In this document: positions 1 to 44,288 of the stretch, piece by piece
Numbering within the stretch: the first letter of the stretch is position 1
Layout: the number at the start of each line of letters is the position of its first letter
Virus record (IMG/VR): IMGVR_UViG_3300045996_000964
Location: 1 to 44,288 of that record
Direction: 5' to 3' (one strand)
DNA length: 44,288 nt
Source: a virus
Made by a program: the position numbers and the translations under genes
Notes under the pieces: model-generated
What the model was told of the DNA's origin: nothing
The model's database searches: none
What the model saw: the letters and a program-made list of their open reading frames with translations, nothing else

Positions 1-124
1 TGGCTCCGGTGGTGCGGCTTCGAGTTCGGCTCCCCCCTGCCCATCAACGGGCACCAGTTCATCCCCTTCGCGAGGCAACACCATGTGCGGACCAGCCGCG
101 ATCCCTCTTGCGACCCTGGCTGTC
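1..124. repeat. Terminal overlap: bases 1-124 are identical to 44165-44288 (circular closure or collapsed terminal redundancy)
   Basis: Direct comparison of the first and last lines of the window shows a 124-nt exact match running to the last base. Confidence 0.95.
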
Positions 125-8957: not shown

Positions 8958-8983
8958 GCGAAATACCTTGCCACTCAACCCCC
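8958..8983 (+). promoter_or_regulatory. motif A copy 1: candidate phage RNA polymerase promoter (gcgaaataccttgccactcaaccccc)
   Basis: A 27-nt stretch (8957-8983) is identical to 33224-33250 and matches 23470-23493 with 2 mismatches. The AATAC..ACTCA layout resembles T7-group promoters. Confidence 0.6.
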
Positions 8984-11501: not shown

Positions 11502-11513
11502 GAGTGCGCCACC

Positions 11514-11663
11514 ATGGCCACCAACATTCTCTCCACCTATCCAGCCGCTCGCCGCACCAACGTCGCCCGCAACATTCTGGCCTCGGTCTTCAGCTGCCCG
11601 ATCACTTGGGCGCTCGCCTCGGCCGCCATGTGGGCGCCGTTCCTCATGTACTTCGTCAGTTGA
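11514..11663 (+). CDS. hypothetical small membrane protein (49 aa)
   Basis: GGAG lies 9 nt upstream of ATG 11514. A hydrophobic segment is present (ILASVFSCPITWALASAAMWAPFLMYFV). Confidence 0.5.
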   Translation: MATNILSTYPAARRTNVARNILASVFSCPITWALASAAMWAPFLMYFVS

Positions 11664-11717
11664 CCTATCGCCTCGGGCCATCTGCGGGTGGCTCGCACGA
11701 TGGGCCAATTCTGCGTC

Positions 11718-11731
11718 CTGATCAATCCACC
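11718..11731 (+). promoter_or_regulatory. motif B copy (ctgatcaATCCACc)
   Basis: 20 nt upstream of ATG 11750. Confidence 0.4.
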
Positions 11732-11749
11732 CTGTCGAAAGGTGACGCC

Positions 11750-12460
11750 ATGGAACGCTACCCTGGCAAGCTCCTGAACCTGGACGCCAACGCGAAGACC
11801 GTGAAGGGCCAGAAGAAGGGTTTCAAGACCGCCATCCTCTACTTGGCGCCCGTCAAATTGTCGGGCTTCCAGGTCTGCCCGATGGCTAGCAATGGCTGCG
11901 CCGCCGCGTGCCTCAACACTGCCGGCCGGGCTGGCGTCTTCAAGGCGATCGAGAAGGCGCGCATTGCGAAGACGCAGTTCTACTTCAGCAACCGCGAGGC
12001 CTTCATGGCTCAGCTGGTCAGCGAGATTTCGCGCTTCGTCGCCAAGACCCGCCGCGAGGGCTTCGAGCCTGTGGTCCGCCTCAACGGCACGTCGGATATT
12101 CTGTGGGAGCGCGTCACGGTCAACGGCGCGCCCAACATCATGAGCCTGTTTCCTGACGTGACCTTCTACGACTACACCAAGCACATCCCCAGCAAGCGCG
12201 CCAATCTGCCAGCCAACTACAGCCTGACCTACAGCTACTCGGATGATCCGGCCGCGCTGGTCCGCTCCGCCGAGGCTCTGTCGCTGGGCTGGAATGTCGC
12301 CGTGGTGTTCCGCAATGCCCTGCCGCACGACTTCCTGGGCCGCCTCGTGGTCAACGGCGACGAGAGCGATCTGCGCTTCGCAGACGAGCGCGGCGTGGTC
12401 GTCGGGCTCAAGGCCAAGGGCAAGGCCAAGACCGACACTTCAGGCTTCGTCGTCGGCTGA
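11750..12460 (+). CDS. conserved early phage protein with a Cys cluster (CPMASNGCAAAC); possibly GP88-like family
   Basis: 236 aa with a well-formed ORF and high GC3. The family assignment is from memory only. Confidence 0.7.
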   Translation: MERYPGKLLNLDANAKTVKGQKKGFKTAILYLAPVKLSGFQVCPMASNGCAAACLNTAGRAGVFKAIEKARIAKTQFYFSNREAFMAQLVSEISRFVAKTRREGFEPVVRLNGTSDILWERVTVNGAPNIMSLFPDVTFYDYTKHIPSKRANLPANYSLTYSYSDDPAALVRSAEALSLGWNVAVVFRNALPHDFLGRLVVNGDESDLRFADERGVVVGLKAKGKAKTDTSGFVVG

Positions 12461-13950: not shown

Positions 13951-14559
13951 TCAGTCCCCCACGTTGAGGATCGTAACTACCCCCGTCATCACGCAATCGT
14001 AGTCGGGGTGGATGTTCATTGCGACCAGCGTACTGCCGCCGTCGACCGTCAGCACCTCTCCGGTCGGCGCGAGGGCGGAACCTCCAAACGCCCCCCCAAG
14101 CTCCGGTCCCGAGTTGGTGATCCCGCCGATCGCCTGCTCGCCCGCGGGCAGGTCGAACAAGTTGAAGCGCGTCGGGTCGATGGCCTGCGTTATAGCCCAG
14201 CCATCTACGTCGCTGCGGATGAGCAACCGCGAGCGCGGCAAGCCCGAAGCGGGTGAGGGAAAGCACCGCGCGACCACTTCAAGCGGGCCATTCTTCCCGA
14301 CCACGATATCGGGATCACCTACTATCATGGCGACGGAGAACGGAGTTTCAAAAGCCGATGCGCCAATCGTCACCTGCTCGCTCCCGCGGGGACATTCCGA
14401 GCGTAGAGGTTCGTCGCCAAGCTGGAGCTGTACAAGCCGACCATTTCGCAGGCAACCGGTCAGTTGGTCTTCAGCCTTTGCGTCATGGCAATAAAAGGTG
14501 ACGGCCGCCAGACAGCAGGAAACAGCTAAGTCTAAGACCCGGCGAGTAGTCATTGCCAT
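13951..14559 (-). CDS. secreted hypothetical protein (202 aa) with Sec-type signal peptide
   Basis: GGGAG lies 5 nt upstream of ATG 14559. The N-terminus MAMTTRRVLDLAVSCCLAAVTFYCHDAKA-EDQ is signal-peptide-like, and the mature part looks beta-rich. Confidence 0.65.
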   Translation of the reverse strand: MAMTTRRVLDLAVSCCLAAVTFYCHDAKAEDQLTGCLRNGRLVQLQLGDEPLRSECPRGSEQVTIGASAFETPFSVAMIVGDPDIVVGKNGPLEVVARCFPSPASGLPRSRLLIRSDVDGWAITQAIDPTRFNLFDLPAGEQAIGGITNSGPELGGAFGGSALAPTGEVLTVDGGSTLVAMNIHPDYDCVMTGVVTILNVGD

Positions 14560-15181
14560 GTGCTCCCAGCTAATGGCCAGACGTTGGTTACAACCGCTCG
14601 TCAGCTTGGCATAAAGTCTAAACTGGGATTCCCCCCGTTTGCGGCTTCCGAAGCCCAATCATTGCATTTTACGCCCCCTGCCGCAAGACTTCATCTCGCC
14701 GATCCCCTACCAGGGCTACAACACGGTGCTCGGCTACATGGCCACGCACTTCCCCGCCGAGCTGGACCTGATGGACCTCTCGCCCGAGGTCACCAATGCG
14801 GGATGGCTGGGCGCTCAATCACCACTGCGCGAGGGTCGGCCGGCCGGTCTACAAGGTCGAGGCCCCGCGGTTCCTCCAGGAGGAGGGCGTCCAGGAGGTA
14901 ACGCCTACCCGAAGGGAGCTGCTGTCGGCGCATCCGAGGCTGAGGCAGCCTGAGAATGTTGCAAGAAGGCCACAACCGTGGCTATTACACAACAGCCCGA
15001 CCGCCACCTATTGGGGCACAACAGGGGCTGACCACATAATGCGCGATGCCTAATAGTTGGGCATTTTGGGGGGTGACGGGGTAAAGTGACGGCATACGGC
15101 CTGGTGGAACAGTTCCCCCTTGCCAACCGGCGAGGGAACCACCACCTTCCCGCAATAAGCTGCACCCCGGAGGTACAGACG

Positions 15182-15526
15182 ATGAAGAACGGCACCATGC
15201 CACTGTGGAAGATGTTCCAGGCGGTCGAGGAGTTCCGCAAGCTGGATCAGGAGCTGCCGACGCAGACCGCGAACACCTTCCTCTACATCACGCTGCATGA
15301 GGGCTGCACGCTGAAGGACATAGCCGAAGCCCTCGGCGTGGCTCAGTCGACGATGTCAAGGAACGTCTCGGCGCTGAGCAAGATGCACCGACTACGAAAG
15401 CCAGGGCTCGACCTGGTGAAGGCTACCGAGGACCCCTACGAGCGGCGGCGGAAGATCGTGACGCTCACGCCCAGGGGCAGGCAACTCAAAGATCGCCTGC
15501 TGGCGATCGCAGCGGATGGGAAGTGA
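15182..15526 (+). CDS. MarR/winged-helix-type transcriptional regulator (114 aa)
   Basis: GGAGG SD is present. An HTH-like segment (CTLKDIAEALGVAQSTMSRNVSAL) is followed by a wing-like DPYERRRKIVTLTPRG, as in MarR-family proteins. Confidence 0.6.
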   Translation: MKNGTMPLWKMFQAVEEFRKLDQELPTQTANTFLYITLHEGCTLKDIAEALGVAQSTMSRNVSALSKMHRLRKPGLDLVKATEDPYERRRKIVTLTPRGRQLKDRLLAIAADGK

Positions 15527-15529
15527 CAG

Positions 15530-15949
15530 ATGTTCACCTGGTACAAGGAGATCCGCAAGCTCGGCGCTGTATTCGCTGAGTTCCCTACTGAACCGGGGCG
15601 GCGGTTCATGGATGCCTACCGTGAGGATGGCGAGCTGTTCCTGTGGGTCGGCCGCTTCCACATGATCTGCTCCAGTGCCCGGCGCATCGCGCGTCAGGGC
15701 ATAAGCATGGCGGCAGCGGTTCTCGGCTTAATGTGGACAGAGACGGGCGCGATCAGCCTCGCTCTGCCCTCCATCCCGAAAGCATCTGCCGCCGCCCTCG
15801 TGGCCATGACCGCCGCGGGCGCGGCCGTCTCCGACGAGAGCCTGACCACCCCAGTACCGGTCGTGGAGAGCGCCACATGGCTGCTGTCGCCAGCCTCCGA
15901 CTTCCCCGTGGTATTCGTGCCCGAGGAGACAGCTTCCTTGTCTCAGTAG
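15530..15949 (+). CDS. hypothetical protein (139 aa) with a hydrophobic central segment
   Basis: The ATG is 4 nt after the regulator stop. It overlaps the integrase start by 73 nt. Confidence 0.4.
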   Translation: MFTWYKEIRKLGAVFAEFPTEPGRRFMDAYREDGELFLWVGRFHMICSSARRIARQGISMAAAVLGLMWTETGAISLALPSIPKASAAALVAMTAAGAAVSDESLTTPVPVVESATWLLSPASDFPVVFVPEETASLSQ

Positions 15950-16899
15950 GAGCGGGGCCAACCCGCCAGACCGCCACCTGTCACTCCCTCGAAGAGGCCC
16001 TCGCGAAGCAGCGGGAGCTGAAGGCTGGCGTGCCTTCGGCCCCCGCCGCCGAGGTCTGGACCCTCCAGCGGGCGTTCGACACCACCTGCCGGGTAGCCTG
16101 GGCTGACACCCGAGGTGAGCAAACCGCCAAGGTCAACGCACAGTCGGCGCTCGACCACTTCGGCCCGGAGACCACGCTCGATCGCATCACGACCGACGCG
16201 CTCGACGAGTACGTGCAGGCTCTCAAGGACGAGGGGCTGGCCAACGGCACCATCAACCGGAAGCTGGCCGCCCTGTCTAAGGTCCTGACCGTGGCCGTCG
16301 ACCGCCGAGGCGTGGCCTTTAAGCCGAAGCTGCCCCGCCTGCGGGAGGGTGTCGGCCGCATCCGATACCTCACGGCCGACGAGGAGCGCACCCTGCTCGG
16401 GCTCCTGACGCAGTGGTCCATGCCGGATCACGTCGATGCCATCACCGTGCTGGTCGACACCGGGCTCCGGGTCGGCGAGCTGTTCCGCCTCACCGTGCGT
16501 GACGTCGACCAGAAGCAGCGCCTGCTCCACGTGTGGGAGAACAAGGCCGACCACCCTCGATCGGTGCCGCTGACCAAGCGGGCCTACGAGGTGATCAAGC
16601 GGCGCATGCACCGCGCTGCCTACGGTGGCCCCAACCTGTTCCCCCACGACCACGACTGGCTGCGGCGCCCGTGGGACCGGGCGAAGGTCACCATGGGGCT
16701 CGGCGAGGACAAGCAGTTCGTGCCGCACGCCCTCCGCCACACCTGCGCCAGCCGCCTGGTCCAGCGCAGCGTGCCTCTCAAGGTGGTCCAGGAATGGATG
16801 GGCCACAAGACGATCCAGGTAACCATGCGCTACGCGCACCTGTCACCGACCAACCTGCTCGCCGCCGTAGAGGCACTTGAGGGCTCCGATGGCGTCTAA
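15877..16899 (+). CDS. int: tyrosine recombinase / phage integrase (340 aa)
   Basis: Catalytic signature DTGLRVGEL (Arg I), HALRHTCASRL (H-x-x-R) and MRYAHL (Tyr). GGAGAG lies upstream of ATG 15877, and the ORF is open from 15643. Confidence 0.9.
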   Translation: MAAVASLRLPRGIRARGDSFLVSVGAGPTRQTATCHSLEEALAKQRELKAGVPSAPAAEVWTLQRAFDTTCRVAWADTRGEQTAKVNAQSALDHFGPETTLDRITTDALDEYVQALKDEGLANGTINRKLAALSKVLTVAVDRRGVAFKPKLPRLREGVGRIRYLTADEERTLLGLLTQWSMPDHVDAITVLVDTGLRVGELFRLTVRDVDQKQRLLHVWENKADHPRSVPLTKRAYEVIKRRMHRAAYGGPNLFPHDHDWLRRPWDRAKVTMGLGEDKQFVPHALRHTCASRLVQRSVPLKVVQEWMGHKTIQVTMRYAHLSPTNLLAAVEALEGSDGV

Positions 16900-16943
16900 G
16901 CGCCGACCCGCGCGCACCGATTGCAGTCCTCACACGCAAGGAC

Positions 16944-17321
16944 CTATCCTTCCAAGAAGGCCTGCACATTCGCACGTACGGACGGCAGATCCCTTGTTTC
17001 GCACTCCCATAGCACCAGGACTGTCCAGCCAGACTCCTCGAGACGCGCCCTGAACAGACCATCTCTCTCAACGTTTCTTGCCAGCTTTTCGCGCCAGTAT
17101 GCGGCATTCGATGCAGGGAGCCTTCCGTCCCTGCAGGCCGGGTTCGGATGCTGGTGCCAGAAGCAGCCGTGAACAAAGATTGCCTTGCGCCTCCCTTGGA
17201 ACACCAGGTCCGGTGTGCCGGGCAGATCGCGCCTGTGTAGGCGATATCGGTACCCCATGTGGTGCACGAGCCGGCGCACAGTGAGTTCAGGCTTGGTGTC
17301 CCGACTCCGGATGGCGCTCAT
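16944..17321 (-). CDS. vsr: very short patch repair endonuclease (Vsr)
   Basis: RSRDTKPE, FVHGCFWHQH, NVERD and VLVLWECE match E. coli Vsr blocks. The upstream in-frame EQRSAN suggests the true start may be a non-ATG codon a few codons upstream. Confidence 0.9.
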   Translation of the reverse strand: MSAIRSRDTKPELTVRRLVHHMGYRYRLHRRDLPGTPDLVFQGRRKAIFVHGCFWHQHPNPACRDGRLPASNAAYWREKLARNVERDGLFRARLEESGWTVLVLWECETRDLPSVRANVQAFLEG

Positions 17322-17439
17322 ATTCGCGCTGCGTTGCTCTGAGGTTACGCGATCCAGACCACTTACCCTTCAACCTGAGCTTGACTCTGCCCCGAAGTGG
17401 TGCATCATGATTCATGCTGATGACGTCCGGAGTACGATC

Positions 17440-18711
17440 ATGAAACCAGCCTCAGCGTCGCTCTGCAAGCGAGAGGAGGTGTGGTCATTTTTCTCAGGAG
17501 CTATGGGCCTCGACCTCGGCCTCGAGCAGGCGGGGATTAGCCCGACGCTTGCTAACGAAATAGACAGCAATTGCCTCGGTACGATCAAGGCAACTCGACC
17601 CGATCTCCAGGTTCTTACAGAAAGCATAAGCGACCTCACCTGCAAAAAATTGCGGCAGGCGCGCCAGTTTTATGATGACGTCTACCTCATAGTTGGAGGT
17701 CCTCCTTGTCAGAGCTTTTGTTCAGGCGGGAAGAGGACATCACTGCGGGATACGCGTGGAAATCTTATCTATGAGTTTCTTCGGCTGATCTCGGAGGTGC
17801 GGCCACGTTTTTTCGTCCTAGAGAATGTTGCAAACCTCACAACCGCAGCCCTACGCCACCGCCCCATCGCCGAGCGGCCAGGCCAGCACTGGAGCTTGAA
17901 GCGGTACGATACGGAATGGCAGGACGGTGACGGAGCCGCACGTCCCCTTGATCCAGACGAACGGTCTGGTTCCGCGATCCGCTGCATTCTTGCGGACGTA
18001 GAGGCGCTCGGGTACCACGTGGTCTTCGGCGTGCTGGATGCCGCAGACTACGGCGCGCCGCAGCACCGCCTCCGTTTTGTGATGCTAGGCTCGCGAGAAT
18101 GGCCCCCGCCGTCCTTGCCCAGACCAACTCATGGTAAGGTAGGTTCTGGACTGGCTCCGTTCCGAACTGTCGGTGAGACGATTATGCACCTTAGGGACAA
18201 CCCTGGACCAGGTTCGGAGTATACGCCCGAGGTCAGGCGCTTTTTCTCGCTCGTGCCTCAGGGAGGGAATTGGCGCTCACTTCCGCGAAATCTACAACCT
18301 GATGCGCTTGGAGGTTCCTGGGCTGCGGGAGGTGGTAAGACAGGGTTCTACCGCCGGCTTGCCTGGGACACACCTGCTCCGACGATCACCGGTCGAGCTA
18401 ACCGGAAAGGTAGCGCCCTCTGCCATCCAGAGTTCGACCGCCCACTTTCTGTTCGGGAATGTGCCGCTCTGCAGGGCTTCCCAGGGGATTGGGAATTCGC
18501 CGGCTCCATGAACCCTCAGTACATGCAGGTTGGCAACGCCGTGCCGGTGGCGCTTGGCAGGGCTATCGGGGCGGCCATCCTACGACATGAAATGGAAGCT
18601 AGCTTACCAGCTGACCGCCGCGGACTGGACGTGAACGTCATGATGGCCACGGCCGTGGGGAGGCTCCGCGCCGCAGCCCGGAACAAGGTTAGCCGGCAGG
18701 CGGTAGCGTAG
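17440..18711 (+). CDS. DNA (cytosine-5)-methyltransferase
   Basis: Motif I FSGAMGLDLG, motif IV GGPPCQSFC, motif VI ENV, motif VIII QHRLRF, motif IX RECAALQGFP, motif X GNAVPV. GGAG lies 8 nt upstream of ATG 17440, and ATG 17407 is an alternative. Confidence 0.95.
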   Translation: MKPASASLCKREEVWSFFSGAMGLDLGLEQAGISPTLANEIDSNCLGTIKATRPDLQVLTESISDLTCKKLRQARQFYDDVYLIVGGPPCQSFCSGGKRTSLRDTRGNLIYEFLRLISEVRPRFFVLENVANLTTAALRHRPIAERPGQHWSLKRYDTEWQDGDGAARPLDPDERSGSAIRCILADVEALGYHVVFGVLDAADYGAPQHRLRFVMLGSREWPPPSLPRPTHGKVGSGLAPFRTVGETIMHLRDNPGPGSEYTPEVRRFFSLVPQGGNWRSLPRNLQPDALGGSWAAGGGKTGFYRRLAWDTPAPTITGRANRKGSALCHPEFDRPLSVRECAALQGFPGDWEFAGSMNPQYMQVGNAVPVALGRAIGAAILRHEMEASLPADRRGLDVNVMMATAVGRLRAAARNKVSRQAVA

Positions 18712-18730
18712 AAGCCTGACCTGAACCCGC

Positions 18731-19921
18731 ATGGTCGAATTCCTGCCGTCCAACCATGCTGTCCAGCGCATCAACCGGGAGGTGCAAGCCAGTCTTGTCC
18801 ACGTACAGCAGAATGCGTTCACGAGAGCGTTCCCGGACGCGCATGCATACTGCACCCGTGTGCTGGAGGACCTCAGGATCGGCATACCGTTGCCAGAAGA
18901 ACTGCGCGACAAGCCCGCGACGGATGTCTCCGATCTGACGTTCGCCGATCTTGAGAAGCTCTGGTCACAGTTAGTCAGGGCCGCAGGAACACAAGAACCC
19001 GGAGCTGGCATGCTCGCAGCCAGCTTAGCGCAACATTCACAGCTGCTGCGTGCATTCGAGGACCCCGCTTCCATGCTCGAATGGACCCTTACGAAGGTAG
19101 CTGGGATCGTAGAGGGTCTCCCGAGAACGGACGCAGACATCGAAGTCGGCTCCAATCCTGGAGATGTCTTGGACCCTTTCATCCTGGCCGCGACGCAAGT
19201 GCTCCTCTACAGCGGGAACTTCGAAGAGGCGATAGGGGGCACCGTTGCCCATAAAGCGCTGATGATGTTAGAGGATATGATGGGCCACCTCCACGAGGAG
19301 GTTTTGGGCCGGATGCGCGGTAATATGAAGGCGCCGGAGCCGCGGGGTGAGAACCAGGAACTTTATGACGCCTTTCTGAACCCCTTTCCAGGGGCGGATA
19401 TCATCCAGCCCCCGTTGCAGGCTGGCGAACCGCTTCGGTTGCATCAGGTGAAAAGCAAGACCGGTACGTTGAACTCCAGCGGTGGAGCGCGTCTGGCGGA
19501 GCAAATGCGGCAACTCCGAATGCGTTACAGCAGCGCGGAGATATATTCACACTCCTTGGTCGGCAGAACATTAAGAGGGCACCGGTCTAAGGGCGGTATG
19601 CTGAGAGTGGAACCTCAACTAATTGTGACCGTGGGCGAGACAGCGTTCCGCATCCTCACAGGAAGTAGCAATGGTGCCGAACTCCTCCTGCGGCTGTACC
19701 AAAACGCGTTTCGGATCGCTGCTGAAAGGTCAGGGTATAACGTGGGAGCCACCGCGGCTTTGATCACCCAGGCCTTCAGAGCGAAGGCAGACGCCGCGGG
19801 CGAGGGCTTCCTGGAACTCATGCTCCACGAGGTCACGCGTGGCGAACCGCGGGACCAAGACAGCCGCACGTACCAGAGCAGGACTAGGAGATTCTCTCGG
19901 GCCCCGCGCAAGCAGACTTGA
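18731..19921 (+). CDS. putative type II restriction endonuclease partner of the methyltransferase (396 aa)
   Basis: It starts 20 nt after the MTase stop on the same strand, in the same lower-GC block. It has a weak PD-(D/E)xK-like GAD-x15-QVK, but no family was recognised by eye. Confidence 0.45.
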   Translation: MVEFLPSNHAVQRINREVQASLVHVQQNAFTRAFPDAHAYCTRVLEDLRIGIPLPEELRDKPATDVSDLTFADLEKLWSQLVRAAGTQEPGAGMLAASLAQHSQLLRAFEDPASMLEWTLTKVAGIVEGLPRTDADIEVGSNPGDVLDPFILAATQVLLYSGNFEEAIGGTVAHKALMMLEDMMGHLHEEVLGRMRGNMKAPEPRGENQELYDAFLNPFPGADIIQPPLQAGEPLRLHQVKSKTGTLNSSGGARLAEQMRQLRMRYSSAEIYSHSLVGRTLRGHRSKGGMLRVEPQLIVTVGETAFRILTGSSNGAELLLRLYQNAFRIAAERSGYNVGATAALITQAFRAKADAAGEGFLELMLHEVTRGEPRDQDSRTYQSRTRRFSRAPRKQT

Positions 19922-19987: not shown

Positions 19988-20074
19988 GCCGGGGTGGCGA
20001 AATTGGTAGACGCACTGGACTCAAAATCCAGCGCCCGCAAGGGCTTACGGGTTCGACTCCCGTCCCCGGCACCA
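19988..20074 (+). tRNA. tRNA-Leu(CAA), class II, with encoded CCA
   Basis: Acceptor stem GCCGGGG/CCCCGGC; anticodon stem CTGGA/TCCAG with loop CTCAAAA (anticodon CAA); long variable arm GCCC-GCAA-GGGC; T arm ACGGG-TTCGACT-CCCGT; 3' ACCA. Confidence 0.9.
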
Positions 20075-20902: not shown

Positions 20903-20934
20903 TTGCCATCACTTCCACTGTCGTGAGGTTCCCA

Positions 20935-23433
20935 ATGGACGACGCCCTCATGCAACGGCAGGCCGCCCTTGAGGCGGAGATGCAGGGGCTCGGGACTGAG
21001 CAGTTCCGGGCTCGGCTCGCCACCGCGCGAGAGAACCGCGAAGAGAGCACCACGCCCTACGGACTTGACATGGTCAGCCGGGCGATCGAGCCCCTGGCCC
21101 AGTCGATCGAGGCCTTCATCGAGAAGGCCATGACCGGCGGCCGTGGCCGCAGGCACAGCGCCGTCAAGCACCTGTCCCTGATCGACCCGCAGGTGGCCGC
21201 CTTCATCATCATGAAGGTGGTCCTCGACGGCATCACCAAGCCCAACACTCCGGCCTCCAAGGTGGCGATGGCGATCGGCTACCAGCTGGACAACGAGCTG
21301 CACTACCAGGCCTTCGAGCAGCAGCAGCCGAAGCTCTACGGCAAGGTCGCCGAGAGCGTGCGCCGGTCCTCGCACCGGGGCTACCGCGAGAAGGTGATGA
21401 CCTACGCCGCCAACAAGTACGGCACCACGTTCGCCGGCATGTCCCAGCAGGAGAAGCTGCACCTCGGTATGGCCTGCCTGGACATGATGATCGAGACGAC
21501 TGGCTTCGCGGTCATCGAGACCACGCAGCTCAGGAAGGAGTGCAAGGTCCACCTGGTCCCGACCGCGAAGGCTCTGGATTGGATCAACGCGACGGTCTCC
21601 CGGTGCGAGCTGCTCTCCCCCATGCTGTTGCCGATGCTCGTTCCACCTAAGCCCTGGACCAGCCCCAACGAGGGCGGTTACCACACCAACCACGTCCGAC
21701 GTCGCCTGCTCAAGACGTCGAGCGGGCTGAACGCCACCCTCAAGAAGATGGCCGACAACTGGGAGGGCATGGCCACGGTGCGCGAGGCGGTCGAGCGCAT
21801 CGACAGGACCGGCTGGCGCATCCGGCAAGACGTGCTGGAGGTGGCCCGCTGGTACTGGGACGCCGGCATCACGGTCGGCAAGCTCCCGCCTCGGGATGAC
21901 GTGGCTCTCCCTCCCTGTCCGGTCTGCGGCCAGCAGCCCACGGGTGACCACGAGCACCTCCGGGACGAGGAGATCAAGAAGCTCTGGAAGCGGGACGCCG
22001 CTCGCATCCACGGCTACAACGCCAAGCTCAAGTCGAAGCGGCTCCAGGCCGGGAAGATCCTCTGGCTCGCCGACAAGTTCAAGGACGAGCAGGCGATCTA
22101 CTTCCCGCACCAGCTCGACTTCCGCGGGCGGGTGTACCCCATGCCCCTGTTCCTCCAGCCACAGGGGAACGACCTGGCCAAGGGGCTGCTGACCTTCGCC
22201 AAGGGCAAGCTGATCCTCGACGAGGTCGCGGCCGGATGGCTCATGATCCACGGTGCCGGCACCTACGGCTACGATAAGGTGAGCCTGGACGGGCGCATCG
22301 GCTGGGTCGTGGAGAACGAGGCCCGCATCCTCGCCTGCGCCGACGACCCGATCGTGGAGCGGTGGTGGACCGAGGCCGACAAGCCCTGGCAGTTCCTCGC
22401 CTTCTGCAAGGAGTGGGCCAACTTCAAGGACGTCGGCTACGGCTTCGTCTCGACCCTTCCGATCTCCCTGGACGGCAGCTGCAACGGCCTCCAGCACTAC
22501 TCGGCCATGCTGCGAGACCCGAAGGGTGGCAAGGCGGTGAACCTGGTGCCGTCCAACAAGCCGGCCGACATCTACCAGGAGGTGGCCAACGTCACGCTGC
22601 ACAAGCTGCGCCGTATCGTATCCACGCCGGCCACTAATGGCGACGAGGAAGCCGAGCGGGTGCTGGCCCAGCAGTGGCTGGACTTCGGGGTCACCCGTAA
22701 GACGACCAAGCGGCCGGTCATGGTGGTGCCCTACAGCGGCACCCGCCACGCCTGCCGGCAGTACACCCAGGACCACATCGAGGAGGAAGTGGAGGCGCGC
22801 AAGCTGCGAGACCCGAGCTACGTCTCGCCGTGGCCGCTGGGTGAGCTTCTCCAGCCTACCCTGTTCCTGACGCGCCTCGTCTGGACCGCGATCGGGGAGG
22901 TGGTCGTGGCCGCAAGGAAGGCCATGGACTGGCTCAAGAAGGTATCGGCCGCGGTATCCAAGGCCAACCTGCCGATCGAGTGGGTGACCCCCGCGGGGTT
23001 CCCCGTTCACCAGGCCTACTACGACACCAAGTCCAGGAGGGTGTTCACCAGATTGGGCGACAACATCCTCATGCCCCGTCTCCAGGAGTACCTGCCCACC
23101 ATCAACGCGAGGGAGCAGGGTAACGCCTTCCCGCCCAACTTCGTCCACTCCCTCGACGCCGCCGCCCTCCAGCTCTCGGTCTGCTACGCGGCGGACAACG
23201 GGATCGAGGAGTTCGCCATGGTCCACGACAGCTACGGGTGCCCGGCGGCCGACGCTGAGATGCTCGGCCAGTGCCTCCGCCTGGCGTTCGTCGAGATGTA
23301 CCAGGAGAACAACGTGCTGGCTGACCTCAAGGCCAACGTCGAGGCAGCTCTCGGCTCGCCCCTCCCGGAGCCCCCGGCGATGGGCACGCTGGACCTGGAG
23401 CTGATCAAGCAGTCCGACTTCTTTTTCGCCTGA
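20935..23433 (+). CDS. T7-like single-subunit DNA-directed RNA polymerase
   Basis: About 832 aa. It contains the palm motif FAMVHDSYG and a C-terminal ...DFFFA like the T7 RNAP FAFA end. GAGG lies 6 nt upstream of ATG 20935, and the ORF is open from GTG 20923. Confidence 0.97.
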   Translation: MDDALMQRQAALEAEMQGLGTEQFRARLATARENREESTTPYGLDMVSRAIEPLAQSIEAFIEKAMTGGRGRRHSAVKHLSLIDPQVAAFIIMKVVLDGITKPNTPASKVAMAIGYQLDNELHYQAFEQQQPKLYGKVAESVRRSSHRGYREKVMTYAANKYGTTFAGMSQQEKLHLGMACLDMMIETTGFAVIETTQLRKECKVHLVPTAKALDWINATVSRCELLSPMLLPMLVPPKPWTSPNEGGYHTNHVRRRLLKTSSGLNATLKKMADNWEGMATVREAVERIDRTGWRIRQDVLEVARWYWDAGITVGKLPPRDDVALPPCPVCGQQPTGDHEHLRDEEIKKLWKRDAARIHGYNAKLKSKRLQAGKILWLADKFKDEQAIYFPHQLDFRGRVYPMPLFLQPQGNDLAKGLLTFAKGKLILDEVAAGWLMIHGAGTYGYDKVSLDGRIGWVVENEARILACADDPIVERWWTEADKPWQFLAFCKEWANFKDVGYGFVSTLPISLDGSCNGLQHYSAMLRDPKGGKAVNLVPSNKPADIYQEVANVTLHKLRRIVSTPATNGDEEAERVLAQQWLDFGVTRKTTKRPVMVVPYSGTRHACRQYTQDHIEEEVEARKLRDPSYVSPWPLGELLQPTLFLTRLVWTAIGEVVVAARKAMDWLKKVSAAVSKANLPIEWVTPAGFPVHQAYYDTKSRRVFTRLGDNILMPRLQEYLPTINAREQGNAFPPNFVHSLDAAALQLSVCYAADNGIEEFAMVHDSYGCPAADAEMLGQCLRLAFVEMYQENNVLADLKANVEAALGSPLPEPPAMGTLDLELIKQSDFFFA

Positions 23434-23469: not shown

Positions 23470-23493
23470 GCGAATTACCTTGCCACTCAGCCC
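23470..23493 (+). promoter_or_regulatory. motif A copy 2: candidate phage RNA polymerase promoter (gcgaattaccttgccactcagccc)
   Basis: It has two mismatches to the 8958 and 33225 copies. It is the first element after the RNAP gene, the position of the first class II promoter in T7. Confidence 0.55.
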
Positions 23494-33224: not shown

Positions 33225-33250
33225 GCGAAATACCTTGCCACTCAACCCCC
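33225..33250 (+). promoter_or_regulatory. motif A copy 3: candidate phage RNA polymerase late promoter
   Basis: It is identical to 8958-8983 and heads the structural gene block. Confidence 0.6.
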
Positions 33251-37024: not shown

Positions 37025-38473
37025 ATGGAGACGCGCCCCCTCGCCCTTCCTCTCGTTCGAGACCTGGTGCTGGGGCTCCTCCGGCAGTTCGGCCAGACGC
37101 TCCCGGCCCTCAACCTGGTCTTCGACGGCAACTCGATCCCGCGTGGCTTCGGGCTCGCCAGCCCCACCACCGAGGCCTACCCGCACCTGGTCTACAACGC
37201 CCTGGTCGCCCTCGGCTGGGATGTGGTGATGACCAAGGTGGCCACCGATGGGATCAAGACCGACGCCCTGGTGACCCGCGCCGCCGCGACAGTAGACGTC
37301 CTCCTGGATGCCGACCGCATCAACATGGTCATCATGCTGGAGGGCACGAACTTCCTCTCCGGTGGTGGCACAGCCGCCCAAGATATCACCAACCTATCCA
37401 ACTACTACACCGCCCGTAAGACCGCTGGCTGGGATCATGTGGTCCTGACCACCATCCCGCCGTGGTCCCCAGGCCTGACCGACAGCTTCAACACCGAGTA
37501 CCCTGTGGTCAACGCCTCACTGCGTGGTGGCGCCCCAACCGGCCGCGAGCTGTTCGACCTCGACGCCGCCCTCACGGCAGACGGCTCGAACCCCGCCACG
37601 CCAACGGCGCACTGGCAGGCCGACAAGATCCACCCCTCGGCCTACGGCGCGCAGGTGATCGCAGCCGCGTGCGTCTCGACCATCCACGCGGTCCTTGGGG
37701 TTGATGAGATCGTCCCGGAGGTCCCAGCTGACGCAGGTGCCCCCGACCTGGGGCACGCCATCAACACCAACCTGGCGTTCTTCGTCGGCTCGCACCCGGC
37801 AGGCTCGTCGCTACTCGGCAAGGAACTGATCAGCAACGCCACCTTCTCCCTCGTAGGCTCCGCAGCCTTCACCGGCGATCACCCCTCGCTGTCCGGCTAC
37901 AAGTGCCTGCGGAACGTCAGCAAGACCGCCGATGCCGCGTACCTCACGGCCGCCCCTGCTGGTCTCACCGGGATCAGCACCGTCTACACCATGTGGGCGG
38001 ACATCCAGATCGACACCGCCCTGGTCGATGGTGAGGCCGCGGCTGTCCTCAGCGCCCCCGTCAACGCTGGCTGGACCTCGACCTACTCGAAGATGATGTG
38101 GGCGAAGTCCAACACGACGCACAAGCAGTTCACCTTCATGCGGAACGTGGGGGTCAATAACGCCAGCGCTGCCAGCGGCGCCGCGAGCTTCCCGACCACG
38201 GGGCGCTACAGGGTCGCTGTCGTCCGTAACGGTACTGCCTACAAGTTCTACCTCAACGGCGCCCAGGCGGGCTCCGACGAGACCGGCGCCTCGACCGCGA
38301 TCGACTGGTCAGGCACCGACCGGGGCATCACCCTCCTCAATCGCCACTTCGGCGCCCCCGGTGAGGGAATGATCGCCCGCCTCCTCGGCCTCCGCGTCTG
38401 GTCGCGTGCTCTCTCCGGCACCGAGATCGGCGACCTCAACACCGACCCGACCCTCGGCACCATCGCCGAGTAG
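37025..38473 (+). CDS. SGNH/GDSL-type esterase fused to a LamG/concanavalin-like domain; candidate tail spike/receptor-modifying enzyme
   Basis: SGNH blocks are FDGNSI (block I), TDGI (II), EGTN (III) and DKIHPS (V, DxxH). The C-terminal part (YRVAVVRNGTAYKFYLNG...LRVWSRALSGTEI) is typical of LamG-like jelly rolls. Confidence 0.65.
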   Translation: METRPLALPLVRDLVLGLLRQFGQTLPALNLVFDGNSIPRGFGLASPTTEAYPHLVYNALVALGWDVVMTKVATDGIKTDALVTRAAATVDVLLDADRINMVIMLEGTNFLSGGGTAAQDITNLSNYYTARKTAGWDHVVLTTIPPWSPGLTDSFNTEYPVVNASLRGGAPTGRELFDLDAALTADGSNPATPTAHWQADKIHPSAYGAQVIAAACVSTIHAVLGVDEIVPEVPADAGAPDLGHAINTNLAFFVGSHPAGSSLLGKELISNATFSLVGSAAFTGDHPSLSGYKCLRNVSKTADAAYLTAAPAGLTGISTVYTMWADIQIDTALVDGEAAAVLSAPVNAGWTSTYSKMMWAKSNTTHKQFTFMRNVGVNNASAASGAASFPTTGRYRVAVVRNGTAYKFYLNGAQAGSDETGASTAIDWSGTDRGITLLNRHFGAPGEGMIARLLGLRVWSRALSGTEIGDLNTDPTLGTIAE

Positions 38474-38731
38474 ACTGTTCCCCCTCAAGGCACACGTGCC
38501 TAGAGACACCTCGGGCTTCGGTTCGTGGTTCTATCGTAAGACCCGACAACGGGCCGCCCAGCCAGGCACGAAGCCGGCATATCGTGTGGGCGATCACCGG
38601 GACCTCCCTGGCGGGAACCCGGTCCCCTTACGGAATTTAACCGGAACTACCCACTGACCGAGCGCCTGATCCTTTCGGTCGAACGCAGCCTCGAGAGCTT
38701 CGCCGCGGTCGGGCCTTTTAGATCAAGGGGG

Positions 38732-39376
38732 TCAAAACCCTCCTTTCAGGTCGGGGGTACCTTCCACCTGGTGGGTCGAACTAAGATCTTTATAATGTCC
38801 GTGCTCATACCCTGGGCATGGATTGCCCTTGCAACTCAGAAGGGCACCACCAGGCAACTCGGCGCAAACACCTTTATCCAAAAACTCTTCGAAATACTCT
38901 GGCTTAATCCCGACTAGCTGCGCATCTCCTTCCACCGACGATTGGCCTTCAAACAGACCACCACCTGGTGTGAAGGTGTATATAGCCAGAGCATCTGGAC
39001 CCGGTGTTACGCCGAGGACGGAATCGTGGCCATTTACTGACATGATTGAACGCACGCCTACGCGACTAGCACAGTACTTGTATCCGCGAGCCAATGGGAG
39101 GCCATAGAAAGACTCCTCTCCACGGATTTCCTTCGTGGGAAGTGCTCTCAAAGCCAAACTAACATATTGCGGGTCGATTCCCATGTATCCAGCAATGGAA
39201 TCAAGAATAACTTCGGCCTCTCGCGTACGAAGATACCAAACAAAACCACGCGCTTCTGTTACAGAATCGAAATGTAGTTGCGAGACGGAAAACAGCCTTG
39301 CCGGATACTCGGCATACGCACTCGAAATCGAAATAAACAACACAGCAGCACTTGCTGCACATGTTTTTAACTTCAT
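38732..39376 (-). CDS. secreted hypothetical protein (214 aa) in a lower-GC insert
   Basis: The signal peptide is MKLKTCAASAAVLFISISSAYA-EY. An AGGAGGGA-type SD is seen on the minus strand (ccaaaggagggattgcattATG). Hand counts give about 50% GC per 60-nt line. Confidence 0.7.
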   Translation of the reverse strand: MKLKTCAASAAVLFISISSAYAEYPARLFSVSQLHFDSVTEARGFVWYLRTREAEVILDSIAGYMGIDPQYVSLALRALPTKEIRGEESFYGLPLARGYKYCASRVGVRSIMSVNGHDSVLGVTPGPDALAIYTFTPGGGLFEGQSSVEGDAQLVGIKPEYFEEFLDKGVCAELPGGALLSCKGNPCPGYEHGHYKDLSSTHQVEGTPDLKGGF

Positions 39377-39707
39377 AATGCAATCCCTCCTTTGGTCGGC
39401 CCGCTTGGGCAGCGAGCGCGGATTTCTTAGCCATGAAATGCGCGAGGGAGTTATATGTCAAGCAAAATCTCCCAAAAGAACACTTAGAGCGTTTCTCTTA
39501 GCCGATTCCTGTGGGCGATGCGCAGTGCCTCTCGTAAGAGGGCTGCCCCCAGCACCAGCTGGGACCGACCCCCACCCACGAAGCAGACACCTTGGCCCGC
39601 TTGGTCCCCCCTGAGGGGGCGACCCTGAGGACACCCCTGCGTGGCGGCGAATGGGGCTGAGCGGTCGGACACACCGTCCAACCCAACAGTCTCACAGGAC
39701 TACTTCA

Positions 39708-43798: not shown

Positions 43799-44288
43799 AT
43801 GGCAGCAGTCCGCCCGTCCATCCTTCCCGACGTGGCGGCCTGCGCCGCGAAGATGCGCCCCGCTGATCAAGCTGAGGTCGGCGCCCTGGGCTACTCACCG
43901 CTCGGGGCGCTGGCCGAAGGCTTCGAGATCTCCGACCCCTGCCTCACGATCGTAGACGAGGCCGGCGAGCCCATCGGCATGTTCGGTGCCGTCCCCTGGC
44001 CTGACCGCGGGGTCGCCAACGTCTGGCTCCTCGCCACCGAAGGGCTCGTGACGGTGGCCAGGCGGCAGTTCATCCGCGAGTGCCGCGCCTGGGTCGACGT
44101 CCTGAACGCCAAGTACCCACTCCTGACCAACCTCGTTCATGCGCGCAACACGGTCCACCTCCGGTGGCTCCGGTGGTGCGGCTTCGAGTTCGGCTCCCCC
44201 CTGCCCATCAACGGGCACCAGTTCATCCCCTTCGCGAGGCAACACCATGTGCGGACCAGCCGCGATCCCTCTTGCGACCCTGGCTGTC
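43799..44288 (+). CDS. internal virion protein A (T7 gp13-position) candidate; the ORF runs off the window end and continues at 125-186
   Basis: GGGAG SD lies 6 nt upstream of ATG 43799. The gene sits between the gp12-like and gp14-like genes. There is no stop before the junction, and about 183 aa are coded if read to TGA 184-186. Confidence 0.5.
   Translation, partial: MAAVRPSILPDVAACAAKMRPADQAEVGALGYSPLGALAEGFEISDPCLTIVDEAGEPIGMFGAVPWPDRGVANVWLLATEGLVTVARRQFIRECRAWVDVLNAKYPLLTNLVHARNTVHLRWLRWCGFEFGSPLPINGHQFIPFARQHHVRTSRDPSCDPGC
44165..44288. repeat. Terminal overlap partner of bases 1-124
   Basis: Exact 124-nt identity with the window start. Confidence 0.95.

Follow-up and report, generated by a model that had tools for sequence, protein, structure and literature searches.

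Burkholderia phage KL3 is a P2-like phage in which an EcoRII-C endonuclease, Vsr, and an EcoRII/Dcm methylase form one module (PMC3091744). A complete type II restriction-modification (R-M) pair is carried by Mesorhizobium phage vB_MloP_Lo5R7ANS (Autographiviridae, KM199771), together with an integrase, a tRNA-Leu, and an RNA polymerase (RNAP). The subject of this report is a 3.0-kb cassette with genes for Vsr, a cytosine-5 DNA methyltransferase, and a 396-aa predicted endonuclease, found in IMG/VR virus record IMGVR_UViG_3300045996_000964. The whole stretch analyzed, positions 1 to 44,288 of that record (44,288 nucleotides), is referred to as the window. The cassette is very probably a classical mobile type IIP R-M operon to which a Vsr repair gene has been added as an accessory; the temperate T7-like phage would carry it as cargo, open to exchange, between its integrase and tRNA-Leu genes.

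KL3 and the window phage are both temperate-type phages with a module of endonuclease, Vsr, and 5-methylcytosine (m5C) methyltransferase. KL3 differs in being a P2-like myovirus, in the EcoRII-C (CCWGG) identity of its endonuclease, and in the order and orientation of its genes. Lo5R7ANS uses the same slot as the window phage, and its RNAP is 39% identical to that of the window. Its cargo differs: Vsr is missing, the endonuclease is of the BglII family (PF09195, 3e-50), and the methylase is of the MT-A70 adenine/N4 type (5e-30). The genes run in the order integrase, endonuclease, methylase, tRNA-Leu, RNAP. A full-text literature search on Lo5R7ANS found no paper. In Rhizobium phage Pasto, the interval between integrase and tRNA-Leu is occupied by different cargo, which encodes an SPFH-domain protein. 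Pseudomonas phage LUZ100 shares the MarR-like regulator, the tyrosine integrase, and the tRNA-Leu just upstream of the RNAP but has no R-M cargo there. The integrase-bearing pelagiphages and cyanophages resemble LUZ100 in this layout and in having no R-M cargo there, and all are temperate-featured T7-like phages (PMC10134795; bioRxiv 10.1101/410191). A first-pass annotation of the window had implied that this gene combination is rare in phages, which the KL3 module contradicts (PMC3091744). It had also held that T7-type phages do not carry whole R-M units; the BglII-type pair in the same slot of Lo5R7ANS, and an unrelated methyltransferase-Vsr unit in the sibling phage L057, speak against this.

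The cargo slot spans 16884..19901 and is marked by a break in homology to sibling phages and by a dip in guanine-cytosine (GC) content. The minus-strand gene at 16944..17321 encodes Vsr, a T:G mismatch very-short-patch-repair endonuclease of 125 aa that may have lost part of its N-terminus. The methyltransferase gene lies divergent from it on the plus strand at 17440..18711 (423 aa; maximal open reading frame [ORF] 17185..18711), and the two are separated by an intergenic region at 17322..17439. The ORF of the type II restriction endonuclease (18731..19921, plus strand) begins 19 nt past the methyltransferase stop codon. Its 396-aa product has a core at approximately residues 147-320 and extra N- and C-terminal helical domains. 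The left border of the slot is the tyrosine integrase at 15643..16899 (plus strand; PF00589 1e-28), which is 79-90% identical in the sibling phages. The right border is a tRNA-Leu(CAA) at 19988..20074 (plus strand; ARAGORN) that is presumed to carry attP. In 1-kb windows, GC is 0.58-0.62 over 17.0-20.0 kb vs ~0.65-0.68 in the backbone. The layout had been recognized in the first-pass annotation, which described a minus-strand Vsr divergent from a methyltransferase with all motifs, a 396-aa ORF 20 nt behind it, and a position between integrase and tRNA. Its claim that the block is compositionally foreign holds in direction, with a milder GC dip than the hand count of 52-58% had given. Its view of the block as a complete 5mC R-M unit plus Vsr that is foreign to the backbone is supported.

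The methyltransferase matches PF00145 (1.4e-55) and TIGR00675 (4.2e-51), both above cutoff, and PADLOC MTase_II (6.6e-91). Its translation holds the cytosine-5 motifs I (FSGAMG), IV (PPCQ), VI (ENV), VIII (QHRLR), IX (RECAALQGFP), and X (GNAVP). The start is likely ATG 17440, with GGAG 8 nt upstream. The promoter scan found a single sigma-70-like match in the intergenic region, at 17381-17408 on the plus strand; this match is not above chance, and its placement fits the ATG 17440 start. The JGI call for this gene (402 aa, P0121; region 17440-17505) begins at a Met inside the motif I sequence FSGAMG, which cuts into the SAM-binding motif. The 402-aa call is too short; in the 423-aa form, the alignment with homologues already begins near residue 10.

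The 396-aa protein belongs to a group of >527 homologues of ~390 aa, every one of which is annotated as hypothetical. In an alignment of 36 homologues, E189 (in GHLHEE), D223 (in PGAD), and Q239 and K241 (in HQVKSK) are invariant. The same four residues are invariant in a wider set of 29 sequences that spans other phyla. An AlphaFold (AF2) model built on the homologue alignment (pLDDT 81, pTM 0.77) has a long helix at 164-194. Two strands come after it, at 224-226 and 236-241, and then another helix and one more strand. The modelled topology is that of a PD-(D/E)XK fold, with the acid on the helix, the Asp starting the second strand, and Q-x-K in the third. When the model was compared to the PDB with Foldseek, EcoO109I (1wte/1wtd) was the sole significant family (E 9e-6, probability 1.0, target TM 0.61), and the next match was at E 0.065. 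Foldseek against viral predicted structures gave nothing significant, and when PDB sequences were searched, whether with the protein alone or with two profiles, all matches were spurious (designed helical repeats and PDCD10).

When 1.84 billion representative proteins were searched exhaustively with the profile, 136 clusters were recovered, which make up a compact family. The two members with the weakest scores, P0370 (242 aa) and P0374 (253 aa), are genuine RE_Eco47II proteins by Pfam (2e-16 and 1e-16). Both also match RE_SinI, and P0374 additionally matches RE_EcoO109I, so that this bridging protein matches both PF09553 and PF14511. The hhalign comparison of the family profile with P0370 and P0374 gave probabilities of 97% and 96% (E 2e-11 and 5e-9). 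In the core helix, 'HKALMxLExxMGHLHEEVLG' is paired with 'HKLAMKLENMVGDFHEEYLG'. In the PGxD strand, 'PFPGADII' is paired with 'RIPGIDII', and in the Q[IV]KSK..NSS strand, 'HQVKSKTGTLNSSGGxRLAEQ' is paired with 'LQIKSKHNSMNSSSSKKLAEE'. The GAD-x15-QVK motif had been described as weak. It corresponds to D223...Q239-V-K241, invariant in both homologue sets, and so cannot be called weak; given the hhalign alignment with RE_Eco47II members, it is the signature of a real clan.

In AvaII and EcoO109I, the catalytic residues are an acid on the core helix, the aspartate of PD, and the lysine of (D/E)XK (PMC7337904). The motif layout of the 396-aa protein is the same, which argues for a restriction endonuclease. 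The enzymes of the Eco47II/SinI/AvaII/EcoO109I clan (PF09553, PF09570, PF14511; 1wte, 1wtd) and the 396-aa protein have in common the PD-(D/E)XK core, the long catalytic helix, the PGxD strand followed by the Q/E-x-K strand, and a cytosine-5 methyltransferase as partner. The clan enzymes are ~230-270 aa in length, vs 396 aa for the window protein, which adds a ~145-residue N-terminal and a ~75-residue C-terminal helical domain to the clan core and is only 15% identical to EcoO109I. By structure and profile evidence, the 396-aa protein is assigned as a conventional PD-(D/E)XK type II restriction endonuclease that forms an unannotated branch of this clan. The first-pass annotation had raised the prospect that it is no conventional restriction enzyme, and its placement in the clan runs counter to this.

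The genes could instead be part of a multi-gene system of the DISARM or Druantia type, or the 396-aa protein could be a new methylation-linked effector. The methyltransferase does match the PADLOC models DruM (7.6e-76) and DrmMII (1.3e-67), and the large extra helical domains at both ends of the 396-aa protein would suit a new effector. The best PADLOC model is nevertheless the plain type II MTase_II, and the core of the 396-aa protein is homologous to Eco47II/EcoO109I with the catalytic motif kept. None of DrmA/B/C or DruA-E is present in the 3-kb slot, which holds only Vsr, the methyltransferase, and the 396-aa gene, or in the conserved two-gene neighborhood of 41 loci. We therefore regard this explanation as highly improbable.

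The family was surveyed across 46 loci. Two NCBI genomes, 42 genomes of GTDB species, and a single IMG/VR contig supplied them, and one locus appears twice in the set. The co-inheritance of methyltransferase and endonuclease is strict. In 41 of the 46 loci, the endonuclease gene is immediately preceded, on its own strand, by a methyltransferase orthologue with 54-76% identity to that of the window, often with a 4-bp start/stop overlap. The five exceptions are two loci at contig ends, two that are N-terminally truncated, and one with an interrupted frame and the methyltransferase ~2 kb upstream. The hosts, from at least nine phyla, include Alpha- and Gammaproteobacteria, Planctomycetota, Verrucomicrobiota, Acidobacteriota, Nitrospirota, Bacteroidota, Chloroflexota, and Actinomycetota, a patchy distribution of the kind typical for mobile R-M units. 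The closest methyltransferase orthologues also partner a 395-397-aa gene, and two of these loci (L067/L068) additionally have a divergent Vsr. The geometry of the window (divergent Vsr, methyltransferase, 395-aa gene) recurs in the Chloroflexota contigs that hold these closest orthologues. The closest endonuclease homologue, 72% identical, is on a bacterial chromosome in the order Vsr, methyltransferase, endonuclease. The 396-aa family was not found by tblastn in 50,697 GenBank phage records or 72,556 PLSDB plasmids, and one distant locus of the family is present in IMG/VR (L046).

Orphan methyltransferases are common in phages. It is conceivable that only the methyltransferase, together with Vsr, matters to the phage by shielding its DNA from a host restriction enzyme of the same specificity, and that the endonuclease is an inactive or decaying passenger. 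At least six endonuclease homologues are frameshifted, truncated, or carry a stop codon, and four of these lie beside an intact methyltransferase; the sequence GGNCC is moderately depleted in the window. In the window, though, the endonuclease is full length, keeps every invariant family residue (E189, D223, Q239, and K241), and has a reading frame that stayed open across a recombination junction. A role for the methyltransferase alone is thus rather improbable, and the broken copies show how restriction genes usually decay. The co-inheritance in 41 of 46 loci, the decay pattern, and the sharp boundaries count in favor of the R-M operon. The cassette has the features of a type IIP m5C R-M unit, namely the cytosine-5 motifs, an adjoining nuclease fold with intact residues, and co-inheritance across unrelated hosts.

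The cassette boundaries were obtained from three sibling phages in IMG/VR (L055, L056, and L057), the RNAPs of which are 83-86% identical to that of the window and the flanks of which are common to all. In blastn against these siblings, homology ends at 16880-16883 and resumes at 19902-19907, and 16884-19901 is therefore the cargo. The slot of L055 is an empty site of only ~347 bp with small ORFs. The slot of L056 (7565-8944) encodes a 459-aa PIN_12-domain protein. The slot of L057 (5712-8440) holds an m5C methyltransferase fused to a helix-turn-helix (HTH) domain and 30% identical to the window enzyme, a 206-aa ORF that is possibly another endonuclease, and Vsr. A tRNA-Leu adjoins the integrase in all three siblings and also in LUZ100, Lo5R7ANS, and Pasto. 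The 396-aa ORF ends in ~6 codons (..PRKQT*; 19902-19921) that are the tail of a backbone ORF (..PREQT*, L055 9624-9643), which in L055 is a small membrane-protein-like ORF. Because these codons come from the backbone ORF, the recombination junction lies inside the 3' end of the endonuclease coding sequence. With the siblings, there is new evidence for a slot of exchangeable cargo between the integrase and the tRNA-Leu in temperate T7-like phages.

A different role for the cassette would be in lytic growth. T7-type phages degrade host DNA. If the cassette were transcribed early, upstream of the RNAP, the endonuclease could shred the unmethylated host chromosome for host shut-off and nucleotide supply, with the progeny protected by the methyltransferase of the previous cycle. 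The methyltransferase and endonuclease genes are co-oriented with the early region and lie between the integrase and the RNAP, and a lytic role directed at host DNA was proposed for the endonuclease/Vsr/Dcm module of KL3 by its authors (PMC3091744). The phage already codes for a T7-type exonuclease, however, and incoming virion DNA would be safe only if it had been fully methylated in the previous cycle. Its function is dispensable for lytic growth, since the siblings have the slot empty or filled with unrelated cargo. The phage-type promoter-like sequences also lie elsewhere. A 22-mer, GAAATACCTTGCCACTCAACCC, occurs with 0-2 mismatches in three plus-strand copies, at 8960-8981 after the terminase gene, at 23472-23493 after the RNAP gene, and at 33227-33248 before the portal gene. 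None is expected by chance, and the copies are probably promoters of the phage RNAP. Within the window, no such promoter-like copy is found in or near the cassette. Considering both sides, a lytic role is unlikely.

Several results weigh against the cassette as a classical R-M operon with an accessory Vsr. The 396-aa protein has no direct match in Pfam, NCBIfam, PADLOC, or PHROGs. In particular, it does not match RE_Eco47II (PF09553) at E <= 0.1, and only 2 of 29 relatives reach E 0.14, so that the window protein is linked to Eco47II transitively and below threshold. RE_Eco47II has a gathering threshold of 25.9 bits, and full-length relatives at a distance score 19-22 bits against it. There is likewise no sequence match to RE_EcoO109I (PF14511), the likeness being structural only. 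By its profile relationships, the protein is better described as an Eco47II homologue at clan level than as a Pfam member. The Glu of the ExK motif is replaced by Gln. The 285 GGNCC sites left in the window indicate no self-avoidance beyond an observed/expected ratio of 0.68. Vsr is present in only ~7 of the 46 endonuclease-family loci and, for this reason, is an optional accessory. The first 13 profile positions are absent from the Vsr ORF of the window, and no ATG, GTG, or TTG exists between the upstream TGA and the Vsr ATG, such that the conserved N-terminus would need a non-canonical start.

The Vsr ORF is otherwise a clear member of its family. It matches Pfam Vsr (4.7e-25), TIGR00632 (2.8e-39), and PHROG 13076 (7.9e-47), and its TIGR00632 score of 134.1 bits compares to a curated cutoff of 97.85 (TIGR00632/PF03852 family). 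The PGTPD and GCFWH motifs (catalytic, zinc-binding) are kept in the alignment with homologues. Upstream of the ATG (17322-17372, minus strand), the frame still codes for a conserved N-terminal peptide, GLDRVTSEQRSAN, closed by a TGA. From this arrangement, the gene appears either to have been recently truncated or to use a CTG start.

The recognition sites of the clan enzymes are GGNCC for Eco47II, GGWCC for SinI and AvaII, and RGGNCCY for EcoO109I, and all of these enzymes are accompanied by m5C methyltransferases. Because the 396-aa enzyme is related to them, its target most likely contains a GGNCC-type core, cut in the G^GNCC style; this assignment is based on family kinship only. In the window, 285 GGNCC sites are observed vs 421 expected (ratio 0.68), a moderate depletion that leaves many sites, with the target site itself being a prediction. 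The methyltransferase is 42% identical to one linked to a true Eco47II-family endonuclease, with gaps across the variable region that are no more than short, which lends weak support to a related specificity. A search for named methyltransferase homologues that could indicate specificity returned generic names only, and the PDB matches of the methyltransferase (DNMT1, M.HaeIII, and M.HhaI) span only the catalytic motifs. It is a tentative suggestion, with the two parts taken jointly, that the 396-aa enzyme, in which two additional helical domains flank the GGNCC-type core, reads a new and longer recognition sequence and that the integrase/tRNA-Leu interval is a dedicated hot spot for swapping defense genes, whether R-M units from different families or a gene for a PIN-domain protein.

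The window also avoids certain 6-bp palindromes compared to a maximal-order Markov expectation. GAGCTC occurs 0 times vs 26 expected, CTCGAG 7 vs 35, GGATCC 0 vs 12, CCCGGG 1 vs 15, and GGGCCC 1 vs 11. This avoidance suggests past exposure to host restriction systems.

The data show the identities of the genes, the homology in fold and motifs, the joint inheritance of methyltransferase and endonuclease, and the limits of the cassette. We infer the enzymatic activities, the recognition sequence, the timing of expression, and the benefit to the phage in the following model of the R-M operon. The methyltransferase would methylate cytosine at C5 in a short palindrome. The co-oriented 396-aa enzyme downstream would act as a homodimeric PD-(D/E)XK endonuclease that cuts the same site when it is unmethylated, with E189 (from the long helix of the core), D223, and Q239-x-K241 as its active site. 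Vsr would nick the T:G mismatches that arise from 5mC deamination, and the site would then not be mutated away. In a lysogen, the unit would restrict unmethylated incoming DNA, such as that of superinfecting phages. The prophage might also be stabilized by post-segregational killing.

No new kind of system is proposed, as the mechanism would be that of a textbook R-M unit plus Vsr repair. The feature is real, coherent, and ordinary in kind. What is new here is a function for an unannotated endonuclease family and the evidence for the slot. A family of >500 proteins that are hypothetical in every source is assigned to the restriction endonucleases of the Eco47II/EcoO109I clan and might yield a new specificity. 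Temperate T7-like phages, in turn, appear to swap restriction and defense genes at one fixed integrase-side slot and would join the phages that have defense cargo at fixed sites.

The phage that carries the cassette is T7-like, as the first-pass annotation had stated, and this is borne out by PHROG matches from the RNAP to the terminase that include primase/helicase, DNA polymerase, portal, capsid, and tail tube. The first 124 bases of the window (1..124) are identical to the last 124 (44165-44288; 100%, repeat search), which makes the contig a closed genome with 44,164 bp of unique sequence. A terminal repeat of the T7 type would be expected elsewhere, since this overlap has the tail-tube genes on one side and those for internal virion proteins on the other. 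With the genome closed and free of host DNA, the cassette is carried by the phage itself. The first-pass annotation had envisaged expression from a prophage, while the record is a closed phage genome in which no host DNA is present. A prophage within host DNA was considered and rejected, given that the contig closes on itself and has phage-type modules only.

The PHROG map is that of a circularly permuted T7-type genome. The internal virion proteins and terminase are at 0.1-8.7 kb. After ~15 kb, the order is MarR-like regulator, integrase, cassette, tRNA-Leu, Ant-like gene, RNAP, single-stranded DNA-binding protein, and endolysin, and it continues with primase/helicase, DNA polymerase, exonuclease, portal, capsid, and tail tube. 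The MarR-like winged-helix regulator of the lysogeny module is encoded upstream of the integrase at 15086..15526 on the plus strand (PHROG 9665 6e-34; weak Pfam MarR_2) and is 52% identical to the MarR-family gene region of LUZ100. The T7-like single-subunit RNAP, a marker of phage type, is at 20923..23433 on the plus strand (PHROG 414 6e-259). It is <=42% identical to the RNAPs of GenBank Autographiviridae, the nearest being those of LUZ100, the Roseobacter CRP phages, Rhizobium phage Pasto, and Mesorhizobium phage Lo5R7ANS. The T7-type RNAP, the order of the replication and structural genes, and the integrase beside a tRNA gene make this a temperate-featured T7-like phage, for which the tRNA-Leu(CAA) is the presumed attP.

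Other regions of the genome have features of their own. The 8.7-15 kb region, from the terminase to the MarR-like gene, is mostly without assignment, and at 9-10 kb its GC is as low as 0.60. A GP88-family protein is encoded there at 11504-12460 (PF17338 1e-48), as is a 235-aa ORF on the minus strand at 13951-14658 that the sibling L057 keeps and that L055 and L056 lack. A 482-aa ORF (37025-38473) with a weak lipase-like PHROG match (9e-8) separates the scaffold gene from the capsid gene. It is followed at 38500-39500 by the lowest GC of the window, 0.53, which is unusual for a T7-type structural module.

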